This document shows positions 19,958-46,493 of a stretch of 64,000 nt of DNA, piece by piece. Each line of letters begins with the position of its first letter. Position 1 is the stretch's first letter. Source of the DNA: a virus. Made by a program: the position numbers and the translations under genes. The DNA lies in IMG/VR virus record IMGVR_UViG_3300005573_000995, positions 22,877 to 86,876 of that record; one strand, written 5' to 3'. The notes beneath the pieces were generated by a model. That model searched no databases and had not been told where the DNA came from. It saw nothing but the letters and a program-made list of their open reading frames with translations.

Positions 19958-20011
19958 TTAGAACAAGAAAAACTTTATATATTTTGTTAGAAATATTATA
20001 ATGGCAAAGGT

Positions 20012-20341
20012 ATGAAAGAACTTCGCATAACGCCTAAATTGTGGGGGGAAGAGCATCTTTTAGTAAACGAGCCACAATATGCTATAAAACTTCTCTTTAT
20101 AAAGAAAGGTTCTACGTCTAAGCACTATCATGTTCTCAAAAAGGAGACACTTTACGTTCTTAATGGTACTGCTACATTACGTATATTTACAGTTCAAGAG
20201 AAAGACGAGACTACGCACGATTATGTCTTGCAAGAGGGGGACTACTTTACCGTTATGCCATGCGCAATACATCAGATTACGGGTCCTGCAACAATCCTCG
20301 AAGTGTCTACCCAACCTTATGATGATGTGATAAGATTATAG
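20012..20341 (+). CDS. Cupin-domain protein
   Basis: SKHYH..KKETLYV..G...HQI...LEVST. Confidence 0.85.
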   Translation: MKELRITPKLWGEEHLLVNEPQYAIKLLFIKKGSTSKHYHVLKKETLYVLNGTATLRIFTVQEKDETTHDYVLQEGDYFTVMPCAIHQITGPATILEVSTQPYDDVIRL

Positions 20342-20356
20342 TAGGTGAGAGAATAG

Positions 20357-20620
20357 ATGAAGTTAGTTCAAATAATTGCTGTTTTTTCTATTCTTCTAAT
20401 TGGCATCATTACTTTCGCTTCTCTATGGGTGCTTCTATATTCAACTGTAAATCTATTCCAGTTCACATTAAGACCCAATGCAACTACTCCCTATGCTTAT
20501 TCGTATGACATCATGATGCAAGGTATGCAAGGCATTTTTAATCTTGCTTTCATTTTGCTGGTTTTAACGTTTGTTGTCTCGTCTCTGGTCTTGCTAATTG
20601 AAGCAAAAGCTGTTGGGTAA
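20357..20620 (+). CDS. Two-TM membrane protein
   Basis: Two long hydrophobic stretches; SD GGTGA. Confidence 0.7.
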   Translation: MKLVQIIAVFSILLIGIITFASLWVLLYSTVNLFQFTLRPNATTPYAYSYDIMMQGMQGIFNLAFILLVLTFVVSSLVLLIEAKAVG

Positions 20621-20699
20621 GAGGGCAGAACGTTCAAGCGTACTGTTATCTGCCTTATATATCGTTCAATACTTATTGAATCATAAGCATTCTTTTTTT

Positions 20700-21023
20700 C
20701 TATATAAGATTTGAAATCGAATTAGAATTTTTGATTTGAAGAAAAGATGCTGAAAAATAGCTCAAATTGTTGCTATGATTTATGAGCAATCTTTGAATAA
20801 ATTTCTCTAAAAATCTACGGAATTTTTCATAGGGATTTCTATCAAAAATGCTGAAAAAATGGCTGGAAATCCTTTCGGCAACTTTTTAAAATATATTTTC
20901 AAATTCTGCTGAATTTTATCGGCAATTCTATAAGAAAATCTTTGGATTTTGCTTTAATTTTTTTCTCCAGATTTTTTCAAAATGCTGGAAAAAATTTTTG
21001 GCGAAATTTCAAACCGGAAAAAT
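20700..21023. other. Phased A/T-tract (intrinsically bent) DNA, copy 1
   Basis: AAAAT/AATTT/ATTTT tracts recur roughly every 10-11 bp over about 320 bp. Confidence 0.75.
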
Positions 21024-21048
21024 TTTTCCCGGGGGTACCTGCTTCCTC
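21024..21048 (+). repeat. 25-bp direct repeat copy 1, TTTTCCCGGGGGTACCTGCTTCCTC (candidate pac/terminus site)
   Basis: Identical to 24509-24533. Confidence 0.85.
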
Positions 21049-21255
21049 TTCGAGCCTTTGTCGCTTGATTTGTTCTGCTCGTGCCAAAACGGCTTTTTTG
21101 TGGTCTTTATTGTCAATCAAGGGCTAAAAATGATAAAGTCCAAGCATCTTATAAAGTTTTATGATTGTTCTCAGGGATTATGATATATTATTTTCATAAT
21201 ATAGTATCGGTAGAGATTAAGGAGCGGGCAGGAACGGCAAACAAGGGTATTTTTA

Positions 21256-21437
21256 CAAATATTTGACAACCAAGGATGCCCGTTGCTCCTATAGGTAAGG
21301 GGCTTAAAATGAACAAATATTTGAAAAACACTGGTATCGTCGCTTTCCACTGCACTGCTGGTTCGTTGAACAAATATTTGGTTGCGCAGGACGTCGTTGG
21401 TGAGCATCGCAGTGGGCCGGTGTTAAACAAATATTTG
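21256..21437. repeat. CAAATATTTG palindrome cluster 1 (4 sites; spacing 58/57/57)
   Basis: Sites start at 21256, 21314, 21371 and 21428, with unique GC-richer spacers. Confidence 0.9.
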
Positions 21438-21491
21438 GGAACAAAATCCTTATTAACCCCTGCTCATATACTATTGGTGGGAAAGAGAAAA

Positions 21492-21695
21492 ATGTTAGTC
21501 TTCGCTTTCAGAGACGAGAAAGAAGCTAGTAAAGCCTGGGAAGTTCTTTTCATGGAGACAGAGAACCCATTATGGCTACGAAGATATGGCAATAAGATAA
21601 TCGACGAGAACAATGATTCGCGGACATATCGAAGCCGTCTAGTGAAGAGCCTTAAGGTAGCACTTCTCAACCCCAAGAAGGTGATGAAGACCTAA
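21492..21695 (+). CDS. Hypothetical protein (likely true start of ORF 21276..21695)
   Basis: TATA-like CTTATTAA at 21449 and GGTGG leader before the ATG at 21492. Confidence 0.65.
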   Translation: MLVFAFRDEKEASKAWEVLFMETENPLWLRRYGNKIIDENNDSRTYRSRLVKSLKVALLNPKKVMKT

Positions 21696-21835
21696 TGGCT
21701 TCTCAAGCGCTATTTATCCAAATCTGTAAAAGATGCGGACATAAATGGTGGCCAAGAAGCCTACTCAAGCCAAAAGTATGCCCCAAATGTAAATCGCCAT
21801 ATTGGGACAGAGAACGGAAAAGAATAGAGACCTAA
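21695..21835 (+). CDS. 46-aa Zn-ribbon microprotein (CKRCGHKW.PR...CPKCKSPYW)
   Basis: Translated by hand; TAATG coupling to the upstream gene; motif type common in archaeal viruses; followed by a T-rich terminator. Confidence 0.8.
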   Translation: MASQALFIQICKRCGHKWWPRSLLKPKVCPKCKSPYWDRERKRIET

Positions 21836-21846
21836 AGTCTCCACTC

Positions 21847-21890
21847 TCTTTATTTTTGTTTTTATTTTTGAAAAAAGAAAGAAAAAAGCT
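21847..21890. terminator. Bidirectional oligo-T terminator
   Basis: T-runs followed by A-runs between convergent genes. Confidence 0.6.
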
Positions 21891-21896
21891 TACGAT

Positions 21897-22007
21897 TTAG
21901 TATTCCTCTGACTTTACCTCATATTCCTGTTTGTCAAAATCAAAAGAAATGACGGTAAAAAGCTTTTTCTTTTGATTTTGCGTATCCACGTTTTTGCTTT
22001 CGACCAA
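21897..22007 (-). CDS. 36-aa peptide MVESKNVDTQNQKKKLFTVISFDFDKQEYEVKSEEY
   Basis: Minus-strand TATA (TTTAAATA, 22043-22050), purine-rich leader and TTG start. Confidence 0.5.
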   Translation of the reverse strand: MVESKNVDTQNQKKKLFTVISFDFDKQEYEVKSEEY

Positions 22008-22071
22008 ATGCCTTTCCCTCGACAGATAGTTATACCCTACTCTATTTAAACGTATCGCTAGGTAACCCGCT

Positions 22072-22265
22072 TAAATGTTTGTTAGAGCACGCAGGACAGG
22101 AGATAGACGGTTCGCTTACAAATATTTGTTCTAGACAACTGCTTAGTGCCGAACGGCAACGCTCTGGTGCAGGCAGTTGGATAAAACAAATATTTGAAAA
22201 AGCCTAACCTTGTCACAAAGCTTACCAACGCTACTGGATTTGGTATCTATTAAATCAAACATTTG
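22072..22265. repeat. CAAATATTTG cluster 2 (4 sites, two degenerate; spacing 47/68/69)
   Basis: TAAATGTTTG at 22072, exact sites at 22119 and 22187, CAAACATTTG at 22256. Confidence 0.85.
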
Positions 22266-22352
22266 TAAACACCCGGCCTCTAGGATATGCATCGGCTATC
22301 CATCGATAGCTTTATATACTATCATACTATTATACTATGCGGGGATACAAAT

Positions 22353-22832
22353 ATGGTTGGTCGATTTCAAGTAATGGCAACACTCCAAGCAGCACGTGCG
22401 TATAAGCTAGGTCTTTCCCTAGACTCAGCTTATTCGTGGGGTCTAGACCGTGCCCTATTCTATGCGGTAGCCAAAAGAGGCTTTAAGGGCAAAAGGCACT
22501 TTATCCCAAATGCGCAATCCGCTAAGGCACCAATCGGCGTTAAGCAACCTGTCGAAACTCCGAAGCCAAAATACAGCATGTTCTACCTAGGTGATGAAGG
22601 CGCATTCATGGATAACGATAAGGCTCTTTTCGTCTTCGGCGATAAAACTCTAACTCCGCAAGACTTTCAGAGGCAAATAATCAGTAGACTTAAAGACTTT
22701 CAGAGCGCCTGGAGTGAAGCCTTAAATATCGTCTCTCAGTACAGTAATGAGAAGCTTCTCTCATCAAAAGCCTTTTTTGAGGAAATCTACAAGCCTAGGA
22801 GAGACGAATTAGCCCTTAAGTGGCTACAGTAA
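22353..22832 (+). CDS. Conserved hypothetical protein (GRFQVMATLQAARAY family)
   Basis: TATA TTTATATA at 22311; the N-terminus resembles, from memory, an uncharacterised family in Thermoproteota; T-rich terminator follows. Confidence 0.8.
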   Translation: MVGRFQVMATLQAARAYKLGLSLDSAYSWGLDRALFYAVAKRGFKGKRHFIPNAQSAKAPIGVKQPVETPKPKYSMFYLGDEGAFMDNDKALFVFGDKTLTPQDFQRQIISRLKDFQSAWSEALNIVSQYSNEKLLSSKAFFEEIYKPRRDELALKWLQ

Positions 22833-22856
22833 AAAATTTTTTCTTTTTTTTTCTTT

Positions 22857-23279
22857 TTAGCTTAAAGCCTCTAAGAGTTCGCTTTCTTTCAGTAGTGCAG
22901 CATGTAACCGCTCTCCATACATGAAAAGAAGGTAAAAGACACGATAATCGTGTTTAGTGGACCCACCATGAAACTCGATAACCGCGGGTAGAGAAGGCAA
23001 AATCTGATAGACAACGTTATCTATCCTTTTTCGGTCTAAAAATTCACGTTCAAACTTATATTGCGGATGTAATCCCTTAATCTGTGCAGCCCAAGGCTTT
23101 CGTTGTGCCCATCCTCCTTCATTACAGTAAACAAAATCTTCATGCTTAACGCAAAAGTCATTTCCGAATTTCAGAAACTCATAAGGTCGAGCATTAGCTA
23201 GCTTTTTCTCCACTAGCTTCTCTATCCACGTCTTCGTTTCGACTGAAGTATTTTCTTGGCTCATTTTTCCCTCATACAT
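22857..23279 (-). CDS. Hypothetical protein
   Basis: Minus-strand TATA at about 23296-23303; convergent terminator at 22833-22857. Confidence 0.75.
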   Translation of the reverse strand: MYEGKMSQENTSVETKTWIEKLVEKKLANARPYEFLKFGNDFCVKHEDFVYCNEGGWAQRKPWAAQIKGLHPQYKFEREFLDRKRIDNVVYQILPSLPAVIEFHGGSTKHDYRVFYLLFMYGERLHAALLKESELLEALS

Positions 23280-23369
23280 CTATATAACCGTGCTGTATAT
23301 AAAGCTTGTGGAGTGTCCTTTATAAGCGATTGCAAGATTGCAATCCAGACGCTAAGCAAGGACAGTGTT

Positions 23370-23492
23370 CAAATATTTGTTTATGTACGACATCCCTTGG
23401 GGGGATAGAGGAGGGGGGCATAAAAACAAATATTTGATTTCTACCGAATTCCTCCTCGTCCGGCAAGCACGCCGGTACAAATCAAATATTTG
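23370..23492. repeat. CAAATATTTG cluster 3 (3 sites; spacing 57/56)
   Basis: Sites at 23370, 23427 and 23483, between divergent promoters. Confidence 0.9.
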
Positions 23493-23572
23493 CGCAAAAA
23501 AGACCTACGGCAAGTTCTTCCTTGACCAATAGCCTTAAATAACCCTCTTTACTTATAGGTAGTGGTGGGAAA

Positions 23573-24172
23573 ATGGGCTATACCCATTATTGGCGAAGAC
23601 CGAAAGAAATAGACCGAAAGAGATTTTCTCTAATCGTCAGAGACTTCAAAAGAGTAATGCCTACTCTCGAGCACTTGGGCATAAAGCTAGCTGATGGCTA
23701 CGGGGAAAATAAACCTGTAGTCAATATCCACCGCGTATGGTTCAACGGGCTAGCGAAATGCGGACATGAAAAGCATGACTATGGGATACCATGGCCAGCA
23801 GAGAACGCTAAAGGAGTAGTTCTTAGCGGAATGCCTAAAAACGAAGTTCTCGGAGGTATATGGTTTGCTGGGGCTTTACTGAACGCTAGAACATGTAATG
23901 GCGATTGCTCCCATGAAACTTTCAATTTCCCTCGTCAAATGAATAGGAAAAACTCTCTCCTAATCAAGGACGGAGAAATGTTTTTCGATTGCTGCAAAAC
24001 CGCTTATAAGCCCTATGACTTCGCGGTAAACGTCTTTCTAATCATAGCCAAGCACTACCTTAAAGACGATATCATAGTTACAAGTGACGGAACAATCGAA
24101 CAATGGCAAGACGCTATCGATTTTGTCCAGAGATTTCTAGACTATGGGCAAGACTTTCAGCTAGCCAATTAA
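23573..24172 (+). CDS. Hypothetical viral protein (MGYTHYW family)
   Basis: MGYTHYW...HETF...CKT..KPYD...SDG pattern seen in many phage hypothetical proteins; own promoter and terminator. Confidence 0.85.
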   Translation: MGYTHYWRRPKEIDRKRFSLIVRDFKRVMPTLEHLGIKLADGYGENKPVVNIHRVWFNGLAKCGHEKHDYGIPWPAENAKGVVLSGMPKNEVLGGIWFAGALLNARTCNGDCSHETFNFPRQMNRKNSLLIKDGEMFFDCCKTAYKPYDFAVNVFLIIAKHYLKDDIIVTSDGTIEQWQDAIDFVQRFLDYGQDFQLAN

Positions 24173-24184
24173 AGCATGCTTTTT

Positions 24185-24508
24185 TTCTATTAAGAAAAAA
24201 ATCGACCTTTAGATTTTTTGGAAATTGACGATGCCTAATCGAAATTATCTACGGTTTTTATAGAATTTTCTTTCAAAAAGCCATTAGATTTTCAGCCAAA
24301 ATGCTTAAAGTTTTGGCGATAATTTACTCTAAAATTTGCTGGGAATTTGCTTGCTTTTTGTTAGAAAATCTGGGCCATTTGCCGGGGAAATGTCAAGGAA
24401 AATTATCAAAAAAGCTGGGCAAAATTCTGCGAAATTCGTCTCAAAATCTGCGCTCAAAATTTTGGGATTCGCGAAAAAATTTTTTTAAAAATTCTATGGG
24501 GGCAAAAA
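24185..24508. other. Phased A/T-tract (bent) DNA, copy 2
   Basis: A/T tracts at about 10-11 bp periodicity; sequence not identical to copy 1. Confidence 0.75.
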
Positions 24509-24533
24509 TTTTCCCGGGGGTACCTGCTTCCTC
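24509..24533 (+). repeat. 25-bp direct repeat copy 2
   Basis: Identical to 21024-21048. Confidence 0.85.
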
Positions 24534-24743
24534 CGCTCTCTTTTCGTCTAAATAGTTTACATAGCGCTATATAGGATTGATAGAATAAAGGCTAGACCAT
24601 ACTGATAAGAAGACCTAATTACGGTCCTTATTGTTCGTGCCAATCCTTATCGCTACTTATAGTATATAGACCTATGTATTTAAACCTTTTGCCTATTTAC
24701 TAATTCATGTTTTTCCTGGTCTTCTACTTATCCGTATTTATTC

Positions 24744-24781
24744 CAAATGTTTGATAAGGACAGTATTTATTCAAATATTTG
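24744..24781. repeat. CAAATATTTG cluster 4 (2 sites)
   Basis: CAAATGTTTG at 24744 and CAAATATTTG at 24772, each preceded by GTATTTATT. Confidence 0.75.
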
Positions 24782-24952
24782 TGACCTTAGTCTATATACT
24801 ACCCTCCGAAACTATATAGACCTACATAGGCCATCTAATGCCTATATATTCGTTCTTATCTCTATATAGAAGTTTAAACTTTTGCGCCAGGTTTAAACTC
24901 TTTAGGGTAAAGGTATATATACCCTAGGGGTATAATCTCAACCGTAAGAAAA

Positions 24953-25093
24953 ATGATAACCCAAAACCGAAACAGAAAGAATAACCTAGTTTACGAGGGC
25001 CGCTTTATGTGCTACGAATGTGGCACGGTCTTCGTGAGTACTAGGTATTTGCATGCACATATAAAGAATGTGCATGTGCATAAGGAGGAGTGA
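24953..25093 (+). CDS. 46-aa classical C2H2 zinc-finger protein
   Basis: FMCYECGTVFVSTRYLHAHIKNVH (C-x2-C-x12-H-x4-H); TATA at about 24913. Confidence 0.8.
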   Translation: MITQNRNRKNNLVYEGRFMCYECGTVFVSTRYLHAHIKNVHVHKEE

Positions 25094-25099
25094 AAGACC

Positions 25100-25327
25100 A
25101 TGTCCGATGAGCTAGTTCTTATGCGAAAAGACCGTTTAGGTCCTGGACAGATGATGTACAAGTGTAGGGAATGCAGAGAGCACACAATACACAACTATGA
25201 GATAAGCATGCCATCATCTTATCATCAGCATTATAGGATTACGCTAGACATTTACAAGTGTATCAATTGCGGAACCTTGAAGTATATTTCCCATAGAGAG
25301 GGTTATGTCGAGAGGTCCATGATGTAA
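25100..25327 (+). CDS. Zn-ribbon protein
   Basis: CREC...CINC; SD GGAGGAG. Confidence 0.75.
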   Translation: MSDELVLMRKDRLGPGQMMYKCRECREHTIHNYEISMPSSYHQHYRITLDIYKCINCGTLKYISHREGYVERSMM

Positions 25328-25668
25328 TGATAACCGAAAAACAAAGGAAAAAAATCCTTCGGCAGCTAAAAACATATGTAGAAAAGGGTAGCCTATATAA
25401 GCTACACTACACTATTACTGTTCCGAAACCTTTCCTACACATTACTGCTAGTATACATATTTTTGAACAAGAAATTATAGAATTTGGCAAGGGAAGTTAT
25501 CTAGATGGGATTGATATTTGGAATTTGATCCATCTAGTCTTATATCTTCAAAGCCAAGGAATACAGGTAAATTGGATTAGGGTAGACGATAAGTTTGAGT
25601 ATTATCCTAATCTTCACATATCGCTAACCCTAGATCACATGCTAGTGGATCATATATTGGAGGAATAA
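25327..25668 (+). CDS. Hypothetical protein
   Basis: TAATG coupling to the upstream gene. Confidence 0.65.
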   Translation: MITEKQRKKILRQLKTYVEKGSLYKLHYTITVPKPFLHITASIHIFEQEIIEFGKGSYLDGIDIWNLIHLVLYLQSQGIQVNWIRVDDKFEYYPNLHISLTLDHMLVDHILEE

Positions 25669-25780
25669 AGGAATTGGACGAAAGAGATCAAACCGCCATA
25701 AGTGAAGCCATGGGAATATGGCTTCAGTTAGTCCTGAAAGAATTAGCACTAGTTGCTTATGAAGGGGGAGCACTAGGAAA

Positions 25781-26218
25781 TTGACCTTAAGCATTACGAT
25801 AATAAGCTATAGGCTTCCATCATATCAACGCAAGATGATGGAAACTAATCCTGAACTTAAGGCCAACATAAAAAAGGCCTATAACAAGGCATGGGCAAAA
25901 CTGTCCGAATTAGGTCCTCATCTAGGGACCTCTCAAATTGTTAGTTTTGTCAATCCTAGCGTAATAAGGGAAAGGCTAGAAGGGATTAAAGTTAAGCTTG
26001 ATCTCGATAAGCCTTTTGCTGTCTTTCATGTCTTAACTACAGAGGAATTGCCATCATGGATACCCTTTTTGGAGACCACAATAAGCGAAAAGCTTGAAAT
26101 AGTCAAAAATAAGAATAGTTATAGAAGTAGGACCGAATATGCCAAGCTACATAATGCACTAGAAGATTTGGAAACGATCAAAAGCGAATTAGCAAATAAG
26201 GCTTTAGAGGTGATTTAG
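25781..26218 (+). CDS. Hypothetical protein preceding MoxR copy 2
   Basis: ORF with SD; operonic spacing. Confidence 0.7.
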   Translation: MTLSITIISYRLPSYQRKMMETNPELKANIKKAYNKAWAKLSELGPHLGTSQIVSFVNPSVIRERLEGIKVKLDLDKPFAVFHVLTTEELPSWIPFLETTISEKLEIVKNKNSYRSRTEYAKLHNALEDLETIKSELANKALEVI

Positions 26219-26220
26219 TT

Positions 26221-27303
26221 TTGAACATTCCTCAAGTTTCCCCCAACCAGCTTATGAAAATTTTAGAAATAGCGCATAAAACTAAAACTGCTGTCCTAAT
26301 AGTAGGACGCTACGGAGTCGGAAAGACCTCAATCCCATATCAATACGCTAATGATAACAGATTTTACCTCGAGGACCTAAAGCTAAGTCAATTTGATGCG
26401 ATAAGCTTGAGAGGTCCTCCGGAGACCGAAATAAAAGACGGTATAAAAATAACGACTTGGCCTATAGGAGACATGTTTTATAGACTTTCACAACATAAAG
26501 AAGGGGCCGTTTTGCTATTGGATGAATTCGATAAAGCGACCCCTTCAGTAGCTAGCGCTAGTTATGAGCTATTACTTCAGAGACGTTATGGTAATTTTGT
26601 TTTAGCAGATAACGTTTTGATTGTAGCTACAAGTAATTTAGAATCTGAAGATTTTAGGAGTGAGGGATTTAGTATCCCTCAATTGGACCGTCTGTTAAAA
26701 GTAGAGCTAGCTTATCAGCTTGAGGATTGGCTAGCTTATGCGAAAAACAAGGGAATAGACAGTAGAATTATAGAGTTTATAAGCACTAATCCCTCTCGCT
26801 TATGGAGAGAAGGACAACCTGAAAGTTTTACTACTACTTCACCTAGAGGATGGGAAAGATTAAGCCATCTACTTCAAAACGTTAATAATTTGGATGTTGA
26901 GCTAATCGAGACGCTAGCAGGGGCCCTAGTAGGGTCCGATATCGCTAGCGAATTTATTGAATTCATTAATGAGGTATCATGGCAAAAGATTTACATTAAC
27001 AACGATATGCAGAAGCTTAAAAACCTTGATTTAGCAGCTAGAAAACTAGTAATAAAACAAGCTGCCCAAGATGTTGCTAGTGATATTGTGAAATCGCATA
27101 ATGCTGCTTATAATCTGAAACTAACGTTTATAACGAATTATTGCCTAGATTATGATGATCTTGAATTTGCTGTTTTGTTTTTCAGAGGCCTGAAGCTAAA
27201 TCTCGACAGTTTTGATGATTTTATTAGGTCCTATAGCTGGCCAAGAAAAACGGAATTATTGACAAAAATAACTGCCTTCAGTAAAAATGGAGGCAGTTCC
27301 TAA
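26221..27303 (+). CDS. MoxR-family AAA+ ATPase (copy 2)
   Basis: GRYGVGKT, LLLDE, ATSN, LDRL, SPRGW. Confidence 0.9.
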   Translation: MNIPQVSPNQLMKILEIAHKTKTAVLIVGRYGVGKTSIPYQYANDNRFYLEDLKLSQFDAISLRGPPETEIKDGIKITTWPIGDMFYRLSQHKEGAVLLLDEFDKATPSVASASYELLLQRRYGNFVLADNVLIVATSNLESEDFRSEGFSIPQLDRLLKVELAYQLEDWLAYAKNKGIDSRIIEFISTNPSRLWREGQPESFTTTSPRGWERLSHLLQNVNNLDVELIETLAGALVGSDIASEFIEFINEVSWQKIYINNDMQKLKNLDLAARKLVIKQAAQDVASDIVKSHNAAYNLKLTFITNYCLDYDDLEFAVLFFRGLKLNLDSFDDFIRSYSWPRKTELLTKITAFSKNGGSS

Positions 27304-28649
27304 TGAATTACGAAAAAATTATAAATGATGCGCTTATACTAATCCGCAATAAATCAAGGATATCCTTCAGCATATTAAAAAATTTTGACTTTAAGGCTTC
27401 TAGTGAAATAAATACTTTTGCTGTAGATGAACAAAACTTAACAATTTACTACAGCCCTAAATTTATTGAGGAAATTTTAAGCAATAAGAAATATACGCTA
27501 TTCACAATAAGCTCTATAATTGAACATGAATTATGCCATGTGCTTGGAGAGGATTATTTAAGAGCTAAACTTCTTCAAAAAAATAACATACCTATTATTC
27601 TTGATGTTTGGAATTGGTCTTGTGATGCTATAATTAATTCGGACCTTATAGCTCACGGTTGGAGCCTGACGGAAAACTGTGTATACCCAGATTTTAGAGC
27701 TATAGGCTTCGACCGTGTCCCTCCTAAAGAAGTACTTTACGAAAGAATTTTAAGAGATTATTATAACGAAGGAGACCAAGGGGACCAAGACCAAGATCAA
27801 GACCAAGACCAAGATCAAGACCAAGACCAAGATCAAGACCAAGACCAAGATCAAGACCAAGACCAAGATCAAGACCAAGAAGGAGGACAATCCGCCAAGG
27901 CTAAAGCTAAAGTAAATGTTAAGGGTTGTCAAGGACAGCAAACAATAGAGGATCCCAAAGATTTTGAAAAAAGCGTTGAAAAGGCTAGTGCTGATATAGC
28001 TCAAAAAATCGAAAAATCATTACAAAACATAGATAATAAAGACATTAGTGAAGATACGCCACAAGCAGTTAAGATATTTGCCCAAAATATCTTAAAACGC
28101 TTAAGAATTCCATTTAGCGCTAAACTGTCTAGGGTTATCTCTACCCATCTAGGAGATTCGGAAAATTGGACAAGACCTCATATAATTAGTAGTGCTGTAG
28201 GCAAGAAATTGCCTAGTTATAACAAGGAATTGCCTAAAATCGCTATAATCTTTGATGTTTCAGGTTCAATAGATACTGAAGAGGCACAAAACTTTTTGAA
28301 TTTAGCTAGTAAATATATTAGAGCACATAGAGAATCAGAGATTTACGTAATAACTTGCGATGATGCTGTCCAATTCTTTAAGAAAATTCACAATTTACAA
28401 GAAATACCGTTAGAGGGACGAGGCTCCACAGATTTTAGGCCACCATTCGAATTGATCAAGGAAAAACACTTAAACCCAGACCTAATTTTATACTTTACGG
28501 ATTTGCGAGGGATATTTCCTTCTTATCGAAAAATTCCTCAACTATATTGGATTGTTGAGGAAAAGAAGTACAATTCTCTCAACGAAGGATATAGATCTGA
28601 AGCCATTCGATTAGGGAAAGTTATTACCTACAGAGAGGATGAGCTATAA
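27303..28649 (+). CDS. HExxH plus VWA protein (copy 2) with a (DQ)n linker
   Basis: HELCH; DVSGS, GRGSTDF and FTD. Confidence 0.9.
   Translation: MNYEKIINDALILIRNKSRISFSILKNFDFKASSEINTFAVDEQNLTIYYSPKFIEEILSNKKYTLFTISSIIEHELCHVLGEDYLRAKLLQKNNIPIILDVWNWSCDAIINSDLIAHGWSLTENCVYPDFRAIGFDRVPPKEVLYERILRDYYNEGDQGDQDQDQDQDQDQDQDQDQDQDQDQDQDQDQDQEGGQSAKAKAKVNVKGCQGQQTIEDPKDFEKSVEKASADIAQKIEKSLQNIDNKDISEDTPQAVKIFAQNILKRLRIPFSAKLSRVISTHLGDSENWTRPHIISSAVGKKLPSYNKELPKIAIIFDVSGSIDTEEAQNFLNLASKYIRAHRESEIYVITCDDAVQFFKKIHNLQEIPLEGRGSTDFRPPFELIKEKHLNPDLILYFTDLRGIFPSYRKIPQLYWIVEEKKYNSLNEGYRSEAIRLGKVITYREDEL
27783..27878 (+). repeat. Hexamer tandem repeat GA(C/T)CAA x16 encoding (DQ)16
   Basis: 18-bp super-unit GACCAAGACCAAGATCAA x5 plus one GACCAA. 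Confidence 0.95.
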
Positions 28650-28775
28650 ATGATGGACAGTTTAGCCTACTTTTTCGACAGCCTAGCTAAACTGATAATC
28701 GAAATACTAAAAATTACGATAATTAGCGCAATAGCGTATATAATTTTAGCTTATGTCTTAAGGAGAGGCTCCTAA
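28650..28775 (+). CDS. 41-aa membrane peptide
   Basis: MMDSLAYFFDSLAKLIIEILKITIISAIAYIILAYVLRRGS; fills the gap between neighbours exactly. Confidence 0.55.
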   Translation: MMDSLAYFFDSLAKLIIEILKITIISAIAYIILAYVLRRGS

Positions 28776-29009
28776 ATGAATAAGAAGACACAAAAGAAGA
28801 TAAGGAAAACTGATAAAGAGCTAGAGGAAAACATGGAAATAGTCACCTTATCATGGGACCAAATACTAAATCTTGCGAAAGAACTAGAATCTCACAAAAA
28901 GAGAGATGAATTTTTAAGGCTATTTGAAGATAACAGAAAATTGCTAATTACCTATAAGGCTCGATGGGATTGTGATGTTATTTTGGGAGAATTGATAAGA
29001 ATTGAGTAA
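28776..29009 (+). CDS. Hypothetical protein
   Basis: SD GGAGAGG; operonic. Confidence 0.6.
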   Translation: MNKKTQKKIRKTDKELEENMEIVTLSWDQILNLAKELESHKKRDEFLRLFEDNRKLLITYKARWDCDVILGELIRIE

Positions 29010-29199
29010 AACAGCAAAATATCGCATTACCCTTAAAGACCAGAATGGTCACGAAATTACTCAAACAATTTGGTTAACTAGTGAACAATTCGATGAACTT
29101 GATAAGGCATTGCGCATTTTAAACAACATACTTGGCCTTAAATGTGATATTTTATATAATGATTGGATATGGATAATATAAAGGAGGTGAGATAAAAAA

Positions 29200-29472
29200 T
29201 TGAAAGACCAAAACAAAAACGATAAGAACATGGCAATACCTAAAGGCTTTTTTAAGGTCTTAAAATTACAGATGTGCCCTGAATGCAGATCCTCAAAATG
29301 GCAAATAACTAGCCCATTCCCTGCCGGATATCTTTCCCATGCAGCTACTATATGGGTTAATTGCAAAAAATGTGGAAGACTTGAAGCCTTCGGATGGCAA
29401 ATGTGTAAAATATGTAAAATTCATGTCTTCCGACTAGATAAAACAAAAGGCTGGAGACAGGAATTAGGCTAG
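29200..29472 (+). CDS. Zn-finger protein
   Basis: CPEC, CKKC, CKIC; SD GGAGGTGA; T-run terminator follows. Confidence 0.7.
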   Translation: MKDQNKNDKNMAIPKGFFKVLKLQMCPECRSSKWQITSPFPAGYLSHAATIWVNCKKCGRLEAFGWQMCKICKIHVFRLDKTKGWRQELG

Positions 29473-29613
29473 TACTTTTTTCTAGCTTCTTTCCCCGTTT
29501 TTCTATTTTCCCGAAATACTAGCGCGAGATAAGCGGATTTTATGCCTAGGAAAAGGCTTTTTTAGTAGGAATTATAGGGATTAAGGGTAGGCTATTCATG
29601 ATATACCTAGGGA

Positions 29614-29660
29614 TACCCATTACCCTATACCCTACCCATTAGCCATTACCCATTACCTAA
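29614..29660. repeat. Degenerate TACCCAT heptamer tandem; G-quadruplex motif on the minus strand
   Basis: Minus strand 29637-29616 reads GGGTAGGGTATAGGGTAATGGG. Confidence 0.7.
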
Positions 29661-29710
29661 ACTGCTTAATGGAAAAGGCTCCTACCTAGATTGATTAACC
29701 CTTAAGGTCA

Positions 29711-29934
29711 CAAATATTTGTTAAAAATTAACGTTTTGAGGGGACCACTGGATATCGGATTTTTTACAAATATTTGTAGCGGTTTAAGGGTTTGAAGGGT
29801 TAGCAAGCAGTTTAAAACCCTACAAATATTTGATAACCTACTCTACCTAGGATATAGTTAGCTCACTTATTGCGTTATAGATGCAATAAAGACCTATACC
29901 GTGTCCTAGATGTTGAAAGGTTTACAAATATTTG
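29711..29934. repeat. CAAATATTTG cluster 5 (4 sites; spacing 56/56/102)
   Basis: Sites at 29711, 29767, 29823 and 29925. Confidence 0.9.
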
Positions 29935-30214
29935 ATAACCTAGTCTTGCTGGTTTTGATGGCCTGTCCTTGTTGGTCTTGATAACCGATTACCCTAATCT
30001 AGCATTTTGATTTAGACATCAGATATAGGGTTATAGATGGGATAGTATAACTTGTATTAGCGCTCTACTGGCAATTCTTTCCTCCCGTCAAAAAGGCTAT
30101 ATATAGCGGGCTAACAGATGGACGGGAGTTATAGATATGTATAATCTCGGTTATCCTTCTTGCTACCAGTAAAGCTTATATATAGAGATAACAAAGGCTT
30201 ATAGAAGAGAAGGC

Positions 30215-30394
30215 ATGGGACAAAATAACAAATCTCATTATCATGTTACCGTAATGTGTCGGGAATGTGGGAAGTTATTTGACCTTCTGAAGTATTGGGA
30301 TTACTGTCCATACTGTCATATCGCCATCCCCTTCTCAGTAGTCGAAGTTACTGCAAGAGATATGAATACCGGACAGCAGATAATGCTTAAATAA
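30215..30394 (+). CDS. 59-aa Zn-ribbon protein
   Basis: CRECG...CPYC; TATA at about 30175. Confidence 0.7.
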   Translation: MGQNNKSHYHVTVMCRECGKLFDLLKYWDYCPYCHIAIPFSVVEVTARDMNTGQQIMLK

Positions 30395-30426
30395 TGGACT
30401 ATATATACGATTAATGTAGATATAGA

Positions 30427-30903
30427 ATGAACAGAAAGGAACTCGCTATAACAGCTTTAATGACTACTCTTTATGTCGTCTTAGTTCAATCTCTTGGTCC
30501 TCTATCCTTTATGCAAATACAGGTTAGAATAGCGAATGCTCTAATAGGTGTAGTGCCAGTAGTGGGTGAACCGGCAGTGATTGGTCTTACGCTAGGTGTA
30601 TTAATAGGAAATATCAACAGTCCTCTGGGCTTTATTGACCTTCTCTCGTTTATCCCTTCCCTTTTTGGAATGATAATAGTTCTCAAGACTAAAGGAAAGA
30701 TGGTAATGGTAGGGCTATCGGTCTATAGTCTATTACTTTCAGCTTGGGTAGCTTTTATGCTAAACATGATATTTGGAGTTCCATATCTTATAACATTTCT
30801 CTATGTGCTTGGAGGAATGATTATATCTACTGTCGTCCTAGGCTATCTGGTATATATTGGCTTAAAGAAAAGAATGAGAAGCTATGAGAGTAGCAAAAAT
30901 TGA
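30427..30903 (+). CDS. queT: QueT-family queuosine-precursor transporter (ECF S-component)
   Basis: ALM..LYVVL...PLSF..IQVRIA.AL...A.IGLTLG..IGN..SPLG..D pattern; multi-TM. Confidence 0.8.
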   Translation: MNRKELAITALMTTLYVVLVQSLGPLSFMQIQVRIANALIGVVPVVGEPAVIGLTLGVLIGNINSPLGFIDLLSFIPSLFGMIIVLKTKGKMVMVGLSVYSLLLSAWVAFMLNMIFGVPYLITFLYVLGGMIISTVVLGYLVYIGLKKRMRSYESSKN

Positions 30904-31375
30904 AAGAGCACTCATGATAGCTGAACTGGAATTAGACGGACTTAAAACTCACACTACTATGAAAAAAGAGAAGTGCAGAATCTATAACACCGTATTTGAT
31001 AAGAAAATTAGAAGAGCATTATCAGCAGTCAGGTCAGCAAGAGATATTCTACGCTTTGATGTTGGAGAGAAACAGATGACTATTACAACAAGAGGTGGCT
31101 CTAATCGTCATGGGAGATGGGATGCTAATCCAAGGTCTTCGTTTACTCAATTCCCCTGTGGCTTTGACATTGACGACAAAGAACCTGGCAAAGGACTAGC
31201 TAGCAAGTGTTGGCATTGTGGCAATGTATTTATCAAAACTAAGCTCTGTCCCGTCTGTAAGCTTTATATCTGCCCTAGCTGTCATGGATGTGGTTGTCAG
31301 CTATCTGATGAAGCTAGAAAAGCCGTCTATTGCGCTCTAAAGACGTTGAGTCCACAAACCACGCTTCTGGAGTAA
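30884..31375 (+). CDS. Cys-rich hypothetical protein
   Basis: CWHC, CPVC, CPSC.GC.C. Confidence 0.7.
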   Translation: MRVAKIERALMIAELELDGLKTHTTMKKEKCRIYNTVFDKKIRRALSAVRSARDILRFDVGEKQMTITTRGGSNRHGRWDANPRSSFTQFPCGFDIDDKEPGKGLASKCWHCGNVFIKTKLCPVCKLYICPSCHGCGCQLSDEARKAVYCALKTLSPQTTLLE

Positions 31376-31422
31376 TGAAAAGCTTAAATAACAGCTTATA
31401 TATATGTTTGACGTGATATAGA

Positions 31423-31719
31423 ATGGGAGAAACAGAAAAAAGCTTGAAGGAAGCAGTCGCCAACGCTATAGTCGAGATGGAGCCACTTAAGACCTTTGGT
31501 TATAAGACTAAAATGAGATATGACAACAAGTATGATGTTGTATGGATAAAGATATATAAAATAGCAAAGGGAAAAGGTCTGTTATGGCATTTGGGGAGTC
31601 TTCTCTCGCTTCGCTTACAGGCACATGGATTAAAGATAATCTATATGCGAGGTTGTCCAGATGGACAGATAGAGTTCGCAATAGATAGACAGAATACACA
31701 TCGTCTAACAATTTTATAG
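31423..31719 (+). CDS. Hypothetical protein
   Basis: Own TATA at about 31384-31400. Confidence 0.65.
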   Translation: MGETEKSLKEAVANAIVEMEPLKTFGYKTKMRYDNKYDVVWIKIYKIAKGKGLLWHLGSLLSLRLQAHGLKIIYMRGCPDGQIEFAIDRQNTHRLTIL

Positions 31720-31758
31720 GGGGAAAGGCATATATATTAGTTCTTCTGCTACTGGATA

Positions 31759-31837
31759 GGGGCAGATAGGGATTTAGCACATCCTCTTTTTGAGGATGGT
31801 TTGCATCGTAAGGTGCAGACGAAACTTGTCTGCCTCC
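31759..31837 (+). ncRNA. Putative structured small RNA 2 (three-way junction)
   Basis: Outer stem GGGGCAGATAGG/CTTGTCTGCCTC; hairpins CATCCTC-T5-GAGGATG and GTTTGCATC-GTAA-GGTGCAGAC; TATA 30 nt upstream. Confidence 0.75.
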
Positions 31838-31891
31838 TAATTTAGCCCAAACTTTATATATAAGACTCTAACCCTATTGTATCGAATCAAA

Positions 31892-32050
31892 ATGGCACAC
31901 AAAGTACTGACTAGGATAGGTCTAGTATCTTTAGGCATACTGGTCTTAATAGGAGTTATCATCTTCGACGTAACAGTTTGGAACAATTTATTTTCTTCCG
32001 GAAATGATTTGGGAAGAACAATAGGATATGGTATAGGATGCAAGGGATAG
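31892..32050 (+). CDS. 52-aa membrane peptide
   Basis: MAHKVLTRIGLVSLGILVLIGVIIFD...; TATA at 31853. Confidence 0.55.
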   Translation: MAHKVLTRIGLVSLGILVLIGVIIFDVTVWNNLFSSGNDLGRTIGYGIGCKG

Positions 32051-32066
32051 ACTCATAAAATGAGGA

Positions 32067-32252
32067 TTGAAAGACGAGATGGCTTGTCCCTACGCACAAA
32101 CTTATGCGGAACAAGGCTTCAATTACGTGGGTTCGGAAGACTTTTCCCACGCTTCTAATGGACCATATCAACAGATGATTAACAAGCTGATAGAGCAAGG
32201 ATGGACTGTCAAGTTCGTGGGTTTTGAGAGAGAGGAGGTGAGCAATCAATGA
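32067..32252 (+). CDS. Hypothetical protein
   Basis: Coupled to the next gene (ATGA). Confidence 0.55.
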   Translation: MKDEMACPYAQTYAEQGFNYVGSEDFSHASNGPYQQMINKLIEQGWTVKFVGFEREEVSNQ

Positions 32253-32434
32253 CTGAGATAACTAGGGAGCAGTTTTCTGCGTATGTCAAAGTTCAGTATA
32301 GCGGAGTAACCAACATGTTTGCTATTGATGTAGTAGAGGCTTTATCAGGACTTTCGAAAGAACAAATCCTCTCTATTATGAAGAACTATGAGGAACTCAA
32401 AAAACGATATCCAGATGTGATAAGGGTCATATAA
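32249..32434 (+). CDS. DUF5049-like small viral protein
   Basis: SGVTNMF motif. Confidence 0.7.
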   Translation: MTEITREQFSAYVKVQYSGVTNMFAIDVVEALSGLSKEQILSIMKNYEELKKRYPDVIRVI

Positions 32435-32481
32435 AAGACTGTAGGAAAAGTTTATATATTGTCCTTTTAATAGTGATATGC

Positions 32482-32651
32482 GCGGTGGAGCCAACGGAGC
32501 CAACAAGCGCCTTAGGTGCTTGCGCCCGTTGTGTATTCCTCCGCAAGTGGAGTGCGACCAGAGTCTCGCGAACTAGGCGAGGTTGCTCTGCTCCACTGTT
32601 TGGAGGTTAGTCCTCCGCGATGGGAGACAGTCGCAGAAGTCTCCCACCGCA
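32482..32651 (+). ncRNA. Putative structured RNA 3 (~170 nt, multi-helix, possible pseudoknot)
   Basis: GC-rich island with at least 7 complementary helices; TATA TTTATATA at 32451. Confidence 0.75.
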
Positions 32652-32680
32652 TACCCCTTAAATTGAGGTTTAACAACAAT

Positions 32681-32899
32681 TTGTTTCGTTGGCTTAAACG
32701 GCTATTTTCGTCTAGAAAGAAAGCCTTTTTGGGGCTATTTTGTGAGGAGCATTTGCCCGAAGTTATCAAATATCATGGAACTTGTATAGTAACTCCACTA
32801 CAAGGAGATTCGGTTCCTACTGACCAAAGGTGTAACGTATACACTTGTAAAAACTTAGTAGTATATTCTGTTGAGAAAGACGAGGATAAAATATTTTGA
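32681..32899 (+). CDS. Hypothetical protein (likely true start of ORF 32516..32899)
   Basis: GAGGT SD before the TTG at 32681; the upstream part of the ORF is the structured RNA. Confidence 0.55.
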   Translation: MFRWLKRLFSSRKKAFLGLFCEEHLPEVIKYHGTCIVTPLQGDSVPTDQRCNVYTCKNLVVYSVEKDEDKIF

Positions 32900-32922
32900 A
32901 TTATTTTCTTATGTGAGAAATA

Positions 32923-33117
32923 ATGGCTACATTACGCTGTCCTTATTGTGGTAAGTTCTTGAGTGTAGCTTATTATAAAATACATGTGAGATATATTTGC
33001 GAACAAAACCCAAACAACTATCAAACTACTACCTGCCCTAAGTGTGGTTACACATATAAAATAAGGGGGAGGAAACCAATAAATGCAAAACCTTATATAG
33101 AAGAAGAAGATTCTTAA
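32923..33117 (+). CDS. Zn-finger protein
   Basis: CPYC...H...C; CPKC. Confidence 0.7.
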   Translation: MATLRCPYCGKFLSVAYYKIHVRYICEQNPNNYQTTTCPKCGYTYKIRGRKPINAKPYIEEEDS

Positions 33118-33186
33118 AAGAGATAGCGGAGCATATTTAGTATCCGCTTGATATATACATTTAATCATTTTAAAAGGTGTAAATAA

Positions 33187-33489
33187 ATGAGTTTTCTTGA
33201 TAGTCGCACGTGGGAAGCACAAAAGAGGCCAGAGAAAGACCCCGAAAAGGTAAAAACTAGATATCAAGACATATATGAAGAAAAGGGTGCATCTGCATTT
33301 GCTGACCCAGTTCATAAATCATATCCGATAGATACTTATGAGCATGTAAGAGCAGCTATCGCTTATTTCTCTAAGCCGAAAAATTACAGGAGATATAAGC
33401 CGGAAGAGAGAAAGTGGATATGGAATCGCATAGTAAAGGCAGCAAAGAAGTTCAAGATAGAAGTATCAGAGCCTGAATGGTCCGATTAA
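33187..33489 (+). CDS. DUF6582-like protein
   Basis: FADP..YPID..HVRAA..YF...Y..E...I..RI..AAKKF.I pattern. Confidence 0.75.
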   Translation: MSFLDSRTWEAQKRPEKDPEKVKTRYQDIYEEKGASAFADPVHKSYPIDTYEHVRAAIAYFSKPKNYRRYKPEERKWIWNRIVKAAKKFKIEVSEPEWSD

Positions 33490-33713
33490 ACAAAAGGAGA
33501 GAAGCCTCTTTGAGTCGTCTTGCTGTCTCCCCTTTACTGTGTATTATCTTTGGGGCATTCTTAATAATCGACAAATTATTTTTACATCTAATCTTTTTTG
33601 ATTATGATAAAATTGGACTTGGATGGCTTAATCCGTATTTTTCTCATCTTATTTGGGGGCTTCTCTTACTTATGGCAGGACTGTTTGATGTGATAAGAAA
33701 TGAGCGCCCTTAA
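33477..33713 (+). CDS. Two-TM membrane protein
   Basis: Hydrophobic segments. Confidence 0.6.
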   Translation: MVRLNKRREASLSRLAVSPLLCIIFGAFLIIDKLFLHLIFFDYDKIGLGWLNPYFSHLIWGLLLLMAGLFDVIRNERP

Positions 33714-33930
33714 TCAAAAATGGTGGAGACGATGGAGAGAGAAAAGAGAAGGTCATTGGATAACCAAAGAGGATAAACACATATATATAAGAGATAAGAA
33801 AGAAGAGGATAGGGATGATGTTTGGGCTTTAGTGAAGAAACAGATTATGAGAGAAGTGGAATATACAGAGGATTGGGAAAGGTCGAACCTCTCGAAGAAA
33901 AAAGCACCTTCCAAGAAAAAATCAAAATAG
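33700..33930 (+). CDS. Basic hypothetical protein
   Basis: GHWIT...HIYI motif of the kind seen in phage head-associated proteins. Confidence 0.55.
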   Translation: MSALNQKWWRRWREKREGHWITKEDKHIYIRDKKEEDRDDVWALVKKQIMREVEYTEDWERSNLSKKKAPSKKKSK

Positions 33931-34130
33931 TTGATGTAATTGAAGTAAAAGGGGCATCAATTGTGGATATACGCGTAAAGTTCGACTATCTCGATGAGCC
34001 AATTAGCTTATGTTATCCTTCGTCTATGCCCAAAGAATACATTATCAATGATATCCAAAAAACGTATGATTTAATTAAAGGGAACAAAAATCCTTCAGAA
34101 CTGAAGGATTTAAAAGACTTAACATTATAG
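33822..34130 (+). CDS. Hypothetical protein
   Basis: SD GGGATGA before a TTG; ORF. Confidence 0.55.
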   Translation: MGFSEETDYERSGIYRGLGKVEPLEEKSTFQEKIKIVDVIEVKGASIVDIRVKFDYLDEPISLCYPSSMPKEYIINDIQKTYDLIKGNKNPSELKDLKDLTL

Positions 34131-34227
34131 GGGGAGAGGGGAATAAAGGACGTGAAGAACGCCGAAAAAACTAATTGTCTTCTGTCCTTGGCCTAGCGTC
34201 CCCTCTCCTTCCACAAAACTGCTAGGC
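34131..34227 (-). ncRNA. Putative pseudoknotted RNA 4
   Basis: GCCTAGC/GCTAGGC helix interleaved with GGAGAGGGGA/TCCCCTCTCC, plus an inner hairpin; minus-strand TATA TTTAAATA begins at 34257, 30 nt before the first paired G. Confidence 0.6.
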
Positions 34228-34284
34228 AATAATGATATTTAAAAGGATATATTTAAAGTTTTCAAATCTTTAGGTGAACAAAAT

Positions 34285-34728
34285 TTGCCCGTATTAGCAA
34301 GTAGTGCCGTGATTGCTCAAGAATTTAGTGGAGCATCTATTTCATCAAGCGTAATTACAATTTATGGAGTAGGGCATGGAAGACCTTATGCCATCCGAGA
34401 CATTAATCAAAATAACGTTATCTGTGATGTAGCTACTACTGATGACGTGATTATTGATGTAAGCGGATTGTCTTTGCCTATGGCCGGCTATATTGTTGTA
34501 TATACTCTGCAAGGGCTTAGTGCTTCTCCCTGGTGCTTCTTAAAGGTTAATCAAATCTATGGGGGGGATATATATCGTGTTATTAGAACCAATACATATA
34601 ACCCTCCGGTCTTGCAGGGCAAGATAACAACAAGGGTAGATGGAGCAAAAAAGCTTTTGACTCCTTCGCAAATTGTTTCTTTGATTAATCAGGGAAAAGA
34701 CGTAGAAGTTATTGGCGATAGTGTCTAA
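34285..34728 (+). CDS. Hypothetical (possibly virion) protein
   Basis: SD GGTGA; beta-rich composition. Confidence 0.7.
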   Translation: MPVLASSAVIAQEFSGASISSSVITIYGVGHGRPYAIRDINQNNVICDVATTDDVIIDVSGLSLPMAGYIVVYTLQGLSASPWCFLKVNQIYGGDIYRVIRTNTYNPPVLQGKITTRVDGAKKLLTPSQIVSLINQGKDVEVIGDSV

Positions 34729-34800
34729 ATTCTTAAGGACTTTGGAGATAAGGGTAAAGATTTAAATATATGGACAGAAAGCTTATAAGACAGAGAAAAT

Positions 34801-44176: not shown

Positions 44177-44182
44177 TAATGT

Positions 44183-45094: not shown

Positions 45095-45126
45095 ACGTTA
45101 CTTTCAATTCCATATCATATTTAATT

Positions 45127-46490: not shown

Positions 46491-46493
46491 CGC

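Follow-up and report, generated by a model that had tools for sequence, protein, structure and literature searches.

An 87-kb virus genome otherwise free of GATC carries a single 4.9-kb block in which this word occurs at its full expected density. The DNA studied was a 64-kb window covering bases 22877-86876 of one virus record (IMG/VR IMGVR_UViG_3300005573_000995) of 86,876 bp, and positions are those of the window. The block, referred to here as the cassette, spans 24534-29472, and the remainder of the record is called the backbone. An exact count confined all 16 GATC of the record to 25527-29288 (25527, 25633, 25648, 25686, 26000, 26176, 27157, 27795, 27813, 27831, 27849, 27867, 27951, 28454, 28594 and 29288), and the 22.9 kb of the record to the left of the window contained none. 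From its base frequencies the window would be expected to hold 221 sites, and from a second-order Markov model 172. Outside 24534-29472 no site was found against 215.9 expected (log10 P of about -94 under a Poisson model), and each of five backbone segments taken alone had none against 10.7-58.6 expected; inside, 16 were observed against 16.7 expected. The record is linear in IMG/VR and 76% complete according to CheckV, and the absence of GATC thus holds for the recorded 86.9 kb. A first-pass annotation of the same DNA had listed these 16 positions, every one of which proved exact with no further site in the window. It had also put the expectation at about 3 GATC per kb, a figure upheld by the base-frequency estimate, and had reported the word as apparently missing outside the island, which the full-record count bore out, ruling out a normal GATC frequency elsewhere. 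These results confirmed that the record carries extreme, whole-backbone avoidance of GATC. The probable explanation is that GATC was purged by host restriction and that the cassette was acquired recently, by recombination, from a donor not under this selection.

The cassette differed from the backbone by measures other than GATC. With a perfect tandem repeat in one of its genes masked, the GATC count was 11 against 14.8 expected (P = 0.20), which indicated no depletion, and 15 of the 16 sites lie within open reading frames (ORFs), distributed over five genes. GGCC, which is depleted in the backbone, occurred 10 times in 24900-29472 against 7.7 expected (P = 1.3e-4 under the backbone ratio). 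Tetranucleotide composition was scanned in 168 sliding windows with GATC and GGCC excluded and the same repeat masked; the counts were made strand-symmetric because a non-symmetric scan tracked the minus-strand gene block. The cassette lay at z = 3.2 from the genome mean, a distance reached by only 3 of the 168 windows, and the five highest windows, which start at 23675-25635, all overlapped the cassette. The G+C content of the cassette (36.1%) is near that of the genome (38.2%). The lack of GGCC depletion and the deviant tetranucleotides supported the conclusion that the cassette is foreign by measures independent of GATC, and the outside origin proposed in the first-pass annotation is therefore backed without recourse to that word.

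GATC is not the only word avoided in the backbone. GAGCTC, GTCAAC and GAGCCC were absent (13.2, 20.9 and 18.5 expected, respectively), and CATATG (1 observed, 16.7 expected), GCCGC (2 and 28), TTCGAA (4 and 16.4) and GGCC (34 and 115.9) were rare; GTAC stood at about half of expectation (87/179). This set of absent or rare words suggests that several restriction specificities occur within the host range. Such words were also counted in loci related to the virus by their capsid protein, wherever at least 10 sites were expected. None of 75 such loci was free of GATC (median observed/expected 0.8), 13 of 73 were free of GTAC and 5 of 62 were free of CTAG, and GGCC was low throughout (median observed/expected 0.37). 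Lineages of one virus group have purged different palindromes, as changing host restriction enzymes would be expected to cause; the same reading has been published for haloarchaeal viruses free of GATC and CTAG (PMC2194725) and for phages in general (PMC6286503). Because many unrelated words are avoided and the relatives avoid different ones, changing sets of host enzymes fit better than a single viral enzyme.

Two further observations concern the distribution of such words. Depletion of GTAC was uneven along the virus, with an observed/expected ratio of 0.6 (37/61.6) in the structural module (window 44001-64000). Segment 20601-24533 (6/6.8) stood apart from the remaining backbone segments, where the ratio was 0.29-0.43, and no GTAC at all occurs in the closest capsid relatives. 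In four capsid relatives CTAG was confined to the first 2-4 kb of the locus (L045, 1-2451; L052, 1-1945; L064, 1-4027; L112, 1-2546), upstream of a 464-511-amino-acid (aa) ORF that precedes the portal homologue, and the other 15-17 kb of each had none against about 20-35 expected. The CTAG border in these four relatives could be either a provirus-host border or a mosaic border of the same kind for another word.

The block defined by GATC certainly includes 25527-29288, and short repeated sequences lie at or near its edges. A 61-nt core repeat occurs in two copies 3485 nt apart, one at 20988-21048 and one at 24473-24533, the latter at the left junction of the cassette; the copies are 80% alike over the 61 nt and identical in the final 25 nt. 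The palindromic word CAAATATTTG has 18 sites in the genome, 14 of which cluster around cassettes at 21256-24772 and 29711-29925, and an array of four occupies 29711-29934, in backbone free of GATC on the right-hand side of the cassette. The 25-nt core had no exact match in IMG/VR and none with up to four mismatches in the other loci examined, and no CAAATATTTG array of two or more sites was found in those other loci.

Logan contigs from two hot-spring metagenome runs (X1 and X2), which held 96% of the sampled words of window 22000-31500, placed the borders more closely. At the left border, X1 contigs covered 22000-24512, 24483-24538 and 24509-27790 with overlaps of 30 nt, a contig of X2 also ended at 24512, and one X1 contig matched from 24474 rightwards, preceded by 255 unrelated letters. 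The 30-letter overlaps of successive contigs were taken to reflect a word length of about 31. Since this exceeds the 25 exact letters of the core, the left breaks are attributed to another sequence in the samples rather than to a repeat within the genome. The right junction falls within 29468-29607: a minor X2 contig (depth 2.77) matched solely from 29468 rightwards, beginning four bases before the end of the last cassette ORF, and a cluster of variants lies at 29525-29607. The letters of the loose ends at 24474 and 29468 were not present in this genome. Within the CAAATATTTG array, a 60-nt contig (29728-29787) had a depth of 43.9, compared with 30-34 beside it. On the simplest reading of these contig ends, a co-occurring relative has in common with this virus the core and the stretch that starts at the terminator, with a different sequence between the two. 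The variable cassette would then be about 24539-29467, within five bases of the coordinates 24534 and 29472 proposed in the first-pass annotation, with which the contig breaks and loose ends at 24474-24538 and 29468 agree. The annotation had also stated that the segment shares the CAAATATTTG sites and the core of the backbone, and this was correct, as one CAAATATTTG site (24772) lies inside the cassette and the 25-nt core directly before it.

The non-coding stretch at 29525-29607, just to the right of the cassette, was hypervariable. Both runs shared five substitutions and three indels relative to the window, and run-specific differences were also present at 29599-29607. The differences shared by X1 and X2 show that the window was not simply assembled from these contigs.

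Cassette and backbone were recovered at equal depth. In X1 the cassette contigs had depths of 25.5 and 30 and the backbone contigs 29.1 and 30.1; in X2 the cassette contigs had depths of 8.15, 7.94 and 8.69 (and 3.6 for one 282-nt contig) and the backbone contigs 6.93-9.24. The right border at 29472 was crossed by single contigs that extended from the cassette, four GATC included, to 29677 (X1) and 29787 (X2), and the left join is supported by contig overlaps, by depth and by the original assembly. An assembly chimera, in which the cassette of a second, related virus was joined through shared core and CAAATATTTG-array sequences, would explain why another sequence shares short border stretches (the loose ends at 24474 in X1 and at 29468 in X2, and the 60-nt contig of excess depth) and why Logan contigs break exactly at the borders. 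We nevertheless regard a chimera as highly improbable, because cassette depth equalled backbone depth in two runs that differ about 3.5-fold in depth, the co-occurring variant was at most about half as deep, and the right border was crossed by single contigs in both. In addition, the 25-nt shared core and the approximately 65 nt of 24474-24538, over which another sequence in the samples seems, from the contig ends, to match before it diverges, were judged shorter than ordinary reads, and the identical cassette ATPase protein was found on three contigs from two sources. The first-pass annotation had itself raised the prospect of a chimera, which the presence of the cassette at backbone depth in both runs makes unlikely.

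The time of import was approached through the absence of new sites in the backbone. A total of 3969 backbone tetramers are one substitution away from GATC, and at equal substitution rates one new GATC would appear per about 0.08% divergence. That none of these tetramers has become a site indicates that selection was very recent; by this simple neutral calculation, selection against GATC in the backbone persisted until less than about 0.23% neutral divergence ago. The flanks of the cassette differed by about 0.2% between the window and the run contigs. Although the cassette made up 55% of the compared length, it held none of the five difference events in X1 and one of the eight in X2, an adjacent pair at 25670-25671 (hypervariable stretch excluded; P of about 0.019 per run, the runs not being independent). 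All 11 independent GATC sites of the cassette have been retained, and one of them was multiplied by the perfect tandem repeat. These observations are consistent with a young import that either has still to encounter a GATC-reading enzyme or is now shielded from one. The first-pass annotation had described the arrival as recent, and this part of its interpretation was supported indirectly, by the divergence limit and by the smaller number of differences in the cassette (P of about 0.02 in each run).

The cassette is a compact block of about 11 ORFs, all on the plus strand. It begins with a non-coding leader (24534-24952) that contains TATA-like boxes and one CAAATATTTG site (24772) and has no GATC, with 0.5 expected. 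By inspection, the first ATG of the cassette is preceded at about 30 nt by TATA-like boxes and an oligo-T run follows the last stop codon, and we read the cassette as one transcription unit with a putative promoter and terminator. The first ORF (24953-25093) encodes a 46-aa protein with a C2H2-like zinc finger that scored below the Pfam cut-off (E 9.2e-5, 23.1 versus 25.2 bits). It is followed by a 75-aa, Cys-rich, zinc-ribbon-like ORF (25100-25327) with no family above threshold and by two orphan ORFs of 113 aa (25327-25668, three GATC) and 145 aa (25781-26218, two GATC), the former being the leftmost ORF whose place in the GATC-bearing block is certain. The two largest genes encode a MoxR-like AAA+ ATPase (26221-27303; one GATC and five GGCC; Pfam AAA and AAA_5; phrog_1297, E 1.4e-56) and a protein that combines a DUF2201_N putative metallopeptidase with a DUF2201 von Willebrand factor A (VWA)-like domain (27303-28649; eight GATC; phrog_1314, E 8.5e-40). 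The latter matched PF13203 and PF09967 over their cut-offs (E 5.9e-14 and 1.9e-14), and its start codon is overlapped by the ATPase stop codon by one base, the two genes being adjacent on one strand. Within the VWA gene lies the perfect 18-nt tandem repeat (27765-27892), which encodes (DQ)n and contains five of the 16 GATC. Three small orphan ORFs (41, 77 and 59 aa; 28650-29181) follow, with no GATC against about 1.8 expected by synonymous shuffling, and the cassette ends with a 90-aa Cys-rich ORF (29200-29472) that carries the last GATC (29288) and has the oligo-T run after its stop codon. Synonymous shuffling of the small border ORFs gave 0-1.4 GATC expected in each.

The only cassette proteins with paralogues elsewhere in the genome, when cassette ORFs were compared with all other ORFs by BLASTP, were the ATPase and the VWA protein. 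Their resident counterpart is a GATC-free pair of backbone genes for a MoxR-like ATPase and a metallopeptidase-VWA protein (12313-14564, plus strand). The two ATPases (backbone copy, 13362 being its last base and 12313 its first) share 31% identity over 245 aa, and for the cassette VWA protein and the product of its backbone counterpart (13359-14564) the figure is 21% over 430 aa. In a large protein collection, the closest homologues of the cassette ATPase outside the genome are 38-46% identical to it, resemble it more than they do the backbone copy, and lie on tiny contigs. The first-pass annotation had named a relative with a different host as the donor, and homologues of this distance and context do not bear that out. 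Named phage proteins that best match the pair are about 26-32% identical. No relative of the cassette ATPase was found in IMG/VR, whether it was queried singly or as a 7-sequence alignment, and megablast of the cassette found nothing among phage records. The cassette ORFs yielded no integrase, transposase or defence-specific family (nine searched with Pfam and PHROGs, seven with NCBIfam and ten with PADLOC); PADLOC returned generic AAA matches only, no cassette protein exceeded an NCBIfam model cut-off, and the ESM Atlas gave nothing usable for the orphan proteins. A transposon or integrative element was rejected, as neither integrase nor transposase was detected in these searches and the inverted matches were weak ones of TATA and palindrome sequence. 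To the left of the cassette, a 199-aa gene (23573-24172; no GATC, about 1 expected) has relatives in 38 IMG/VR loci, and its best homologues (46-48% identity) lie on two otherwise unrelated contigs of ordinary GATC content (L136 and L137); it looks like another travelling accessory gene.

By Pfam, LAGLIDADG inteins are present in both the family B DNA polymerase and the large terminase of the backbone, which also encodes a phage capsid protein, a tail protein and a QueT transporter. A 1461-aa ORF (35284-39669), which we read as a putative portal gene, aligns piecewise with the gene that precedes the capsid gene in relatives. Left of the window, the remaining 22.9 kb encode sugar-modifying enzymes, a Spo11/Topo VI-A-like Toprim protein, an RNA ligase, a 1076-aa beta-class N6/N4 DNA methyltransferase with an intein, and a protein with a weak DpdA-like match (19.7 bits, below the cut-off of 27). 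Of the 91 IMG/VR relatives of the capsid protein, 80 (51-66% identity) were retained. In species-representative genomes, all 12 relatives of this protein (L111-L122) were in Bathyarchaeia/Bathyarchaeota metagenome-assembled genomes; several lie on contigs of 0.3-2.1 Mb, a length that makes proviruses probable. These relatives indicate Bathyarchaeia as the host group, and the virus is a tailed archaeal virus of a Bathyarchaeia-associated group. Both ends of the record lie inside minus-strand ORFs (bases 1-1243 of the record, G000, and window 63097-64000) whose frames do not join, leaving a seamless circle unsupported; no terminal repeat was found in the 86,876 bp, and the genome record is probably truncated. 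The window contained no tRNA genes, no Rfam family was detected at 20000-33500, and a search for relatives of a 468-aa protein (42346-43752) gave nothing useful.

GATC is the site of DpnII/MboI-type enzymes. Of 401 sampled genomes from the class to which the provirus-bearing genome G001 belongs, 8 held the DpnII family (PF04556). In the 86.9-kb virus record, no match to the DpnII, MutH/Sau3AI or Dam (D12) family was obtained up to E 0.1. When window 20001-40000 was searched as DNA against the 401 genomes, no spacer-type match to the virus appeared. A solitary sequence resembling a CRISPR repeat is present as a single copy at 32037-32073, where it closely precedes a small ORF. G069, a member of the class that holds the Bathyarchaeia, has an array of 61 repeats of 37 nt, and the 3' part of this repeat is matched exactly by the final 25 nt of the viral sequence (32049-32073); the identity includes the stem-loop and the ATTGAAAG end, and 31 of the 37 positions match overall. 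This element could be a decoy or a regulator of host CRISPR, and is also a clue to the host.

Purging by restriction followed by import of the cassette would have proceeded as follows. Selection by cleavage would have removed GATC fully, and other words partly or fully, from the backbone, the agent most likely being a GATC-specific Type II restriction enzyme of the usual host. Recombination would then have placed the cassette (about 24539-29467) in the variable region that separates terminase and portal, at short sequences common to co-occurring relatives, namely the A/T-tract and 25-nt core on the left and, on the right, the sequence from the last cassette stop codon onward. Its donor would have been free of selection against GATC and GGCC, and the cassette would be young enough to have kept every GATC site. 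The cassette-bearing genotype is abundant in the sampled springs, so its hosts there may not cut GATC, or the virus may have protection of its own through a methyltransferase or base modification. With 16 GATC in the dominant genotype of two samples, effective GATC restriction cannot be acting now. Possible reasons for this tolerance are a host that lacks the enzyme, as the patchiness of DpnII would allow, protection of a methyltransferase or 7-deazaguanine type, or exemption of the cassette by its position or function.

Several points weigh against this explanation. The dominance of the 16-GATC genotype sits badly with ongoing GATC restriction, and an added assumption, either a permissive host or a protective modification, is needed. 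DpnII was found in none of the five provirus-bearing genomes searched. The first-pass annotation had read the backbone as shaped by GATC restriction. This is favoured by the extreme avoidance of many words, and a GATC enzyme in the host would be its presumed agent, from a family that occurs, patchily, in the presumed host class (8/401). None of the 60 spacers of the G069 array matched the virus (best match 19 nt, E 0.002). GATC alone gives loose borders, as 24534-25526 would be expected to hold 1.8 sites and 29289-30214 to hold 2.05. No single Logan contig bridged the left border, which was crossed by the three-contig path with 30-nt overlaps, and X1 and X2 possibly come from one sampling campaign. 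The contrast in diversity between cassette and flanks is built on five and eight events, and contigs lose rare variants. Finally, no close relative with or without the cassette was recovered that would distinguish gain here from loss elsewhere or point to the donor. Among metagenome contigs the ATPase had matches in 29 loci, of which two were meaningfully close (L002, 1783 bp, 45% identity; L003, 4430 bp, 33%), and both are too short to give gene context.

The abundance of the 16-site genotype in two samples would be expected if the cassette were instead under a maintained exemption, unexposed to the GATC-reading factor, with a contrast that is stable rather than transient. Packaging that starts at the adjacent core might leave the cassette to enter last, a protective product might be made before its entry, or the enzyme might be neutralised by the cassette. 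In favour of this, GATC has been raised five-fold by a perfect tandem repeat at no penalty, the A/T-tract and core element stands immediately before the cassette, and the virus has the large DNA methyltransferase, the QueT transporter and the weak DpdA-like match. We consider such an exemption unlikely, because it leaves the foreign GGCC and tetranucleotide patterns unexplained, and because protection sufficient for 16 sites should ease selection on the remaining 82 kb as well, where not a single site has arisen. Moreover, the cassette proteins match no defence family beyond generic AAA and none exceeds an NCBIfam cut-off, and the cassette lies in the middle of the contig. The specific version in which the core is the packaging start, the cassette enters last and the enzyme has by then been disarmed by the methyltransferase, a base modification or cassette products is very unlikely.

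Avoidance might also have been driven by a GATC-reading activity other than host restriction, such as a viral nuclease directed against host DNA or a methyl-directed enzyme, with the cassette still a recent import. The large beta-class N6/N4 methyltransferase with its intein is encoded by the virus, Type II nucleases are often missed by family models, and methyl-directed Type IIM enzymes that read GATC also drive avoidance, according to a survey of restriction-site avoidance (PMC6286503). We doubt this alternative, since the DpnII, MutH/Sau3AI and Dam (D12) families were without a match in the record, many unrelated words are avoided and relatives avoid different ones. The confinement of all GATC in the genome to 3.8 kb could in principle mark a functional cluster, such as an origin, a target of regulatory methylation or a packaging signal. 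The density, at 16/16.7 or 11/14.8 without the repeat, is that expected from composition, and the sites lie in coding DNA, all except one being within the ORFs of five genes; no Dam-type methyltransferase family was found. A functional cluster was rejected on grounds of density and location, and is scarcely credible. Purging by host restriction, with recent import of the cassette, remains the reading that we prefer.

If this reading is correct, total purging of GATC serves as a built-in clock and label, in that DNA bearing the word must postdate the selective regime or stem from outside it. In an uncultivated archaeal virus, a single recombination event could in this way be delimited within a few bases without a reference genome. 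Two predictions follow: the usual host carries a GATC restriction system together with enzymes for GGCC, GAGCTC, GTCAAC and CATATG, and co-occurring relatives hold different cassettes between the same core and terminator sequences.

The cassette has features in common with several known systems. The morons and mosaic modules of tailed phages, described for lambdoid phages, lie between backbone genes as inserted, autonomously transcribed units whose composition deviates. Like these, the cassette is compact and encoded on one strand, has TATA-like boxes before it and an oligo-T run behind, differs in composition from its neighbours and lies in a variable region between conserved modules. It is much larger than a classical one-gene moron, at 4.9 kb and about 11 ORFs, and has a putative promoter and terminator. 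The adjacent ATPase and VWA genes match the PHROG 1297/1314 pair strongly, but the virus already has one distant pair. In phage T5, the first-step-transfer DNA is a site-free segment that enters the cell first. A sharp restriction-site border within one genome is common to T5 and this virus, but the polarity is reversed: sites are missing from about 94% of the genome and present in one small internal block, so that a protective early segment does not fit. Were the cassette to enter last, it would represent the T5 first-step-transfer logic reversed, in an archaeal virus.

For the acquisition of modules at conserved regulatory sequences, the nearest analogue is the cassette shuffling mediated by promoter early stem-loops (PeSLs) in T4-type phages (PMC2839356). 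For the haloarchaeal virus HGTV-1, in which a TATA-plus-inverted-repeat motif precedes ORFs, the same shuffling idea was raised (PMC3950731). As with PeSLs, short conserved sequences bracket variable cassettes here, with the core after A/T tracts and the palindromic CAAATATTTG near TATA boxes, and the limits of the match to the co-occurring variant, as read from contig ends, appear to coincide with the core and CAAATATTTG region, which suggests exchange between relatives. The core and CAAATATTTG are unrelated in sequence to PeSLs.

Avoidance of restriction sites in prokaryotic viruses generally was surveyed by Rusinov et al. 2018 (PMC6286503), and the haloarchaeal viruses HF1, HF2, His2 and SH1 were described as lacking GATC and CTAG, read as the result of host restriction-modification pressure (PMC2194725). 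A limited literature search found no description of a fully site-bearing block in a purged archaeal virus, although one may be published, and a Bathyarchaeia virus preprint did not mention GATC. Both ingredients of our explanation, restriction-site avoidance and the acquisition of mosaic modules, are already well known, and it involves no new mechanism. Like the GATC-free haloarchaeal viruses, this virus has lost a 4-base palindrome and avoids several palindromes; unlike in those cases, the present host is presumed to be an uncultivated archaeon for which no enzyme is known. What sets it apart from the whole-genome avoidance described in the passages of these reports used here is a 4.9-kb block at full expected GATC density within a site-free 87-kb genome.

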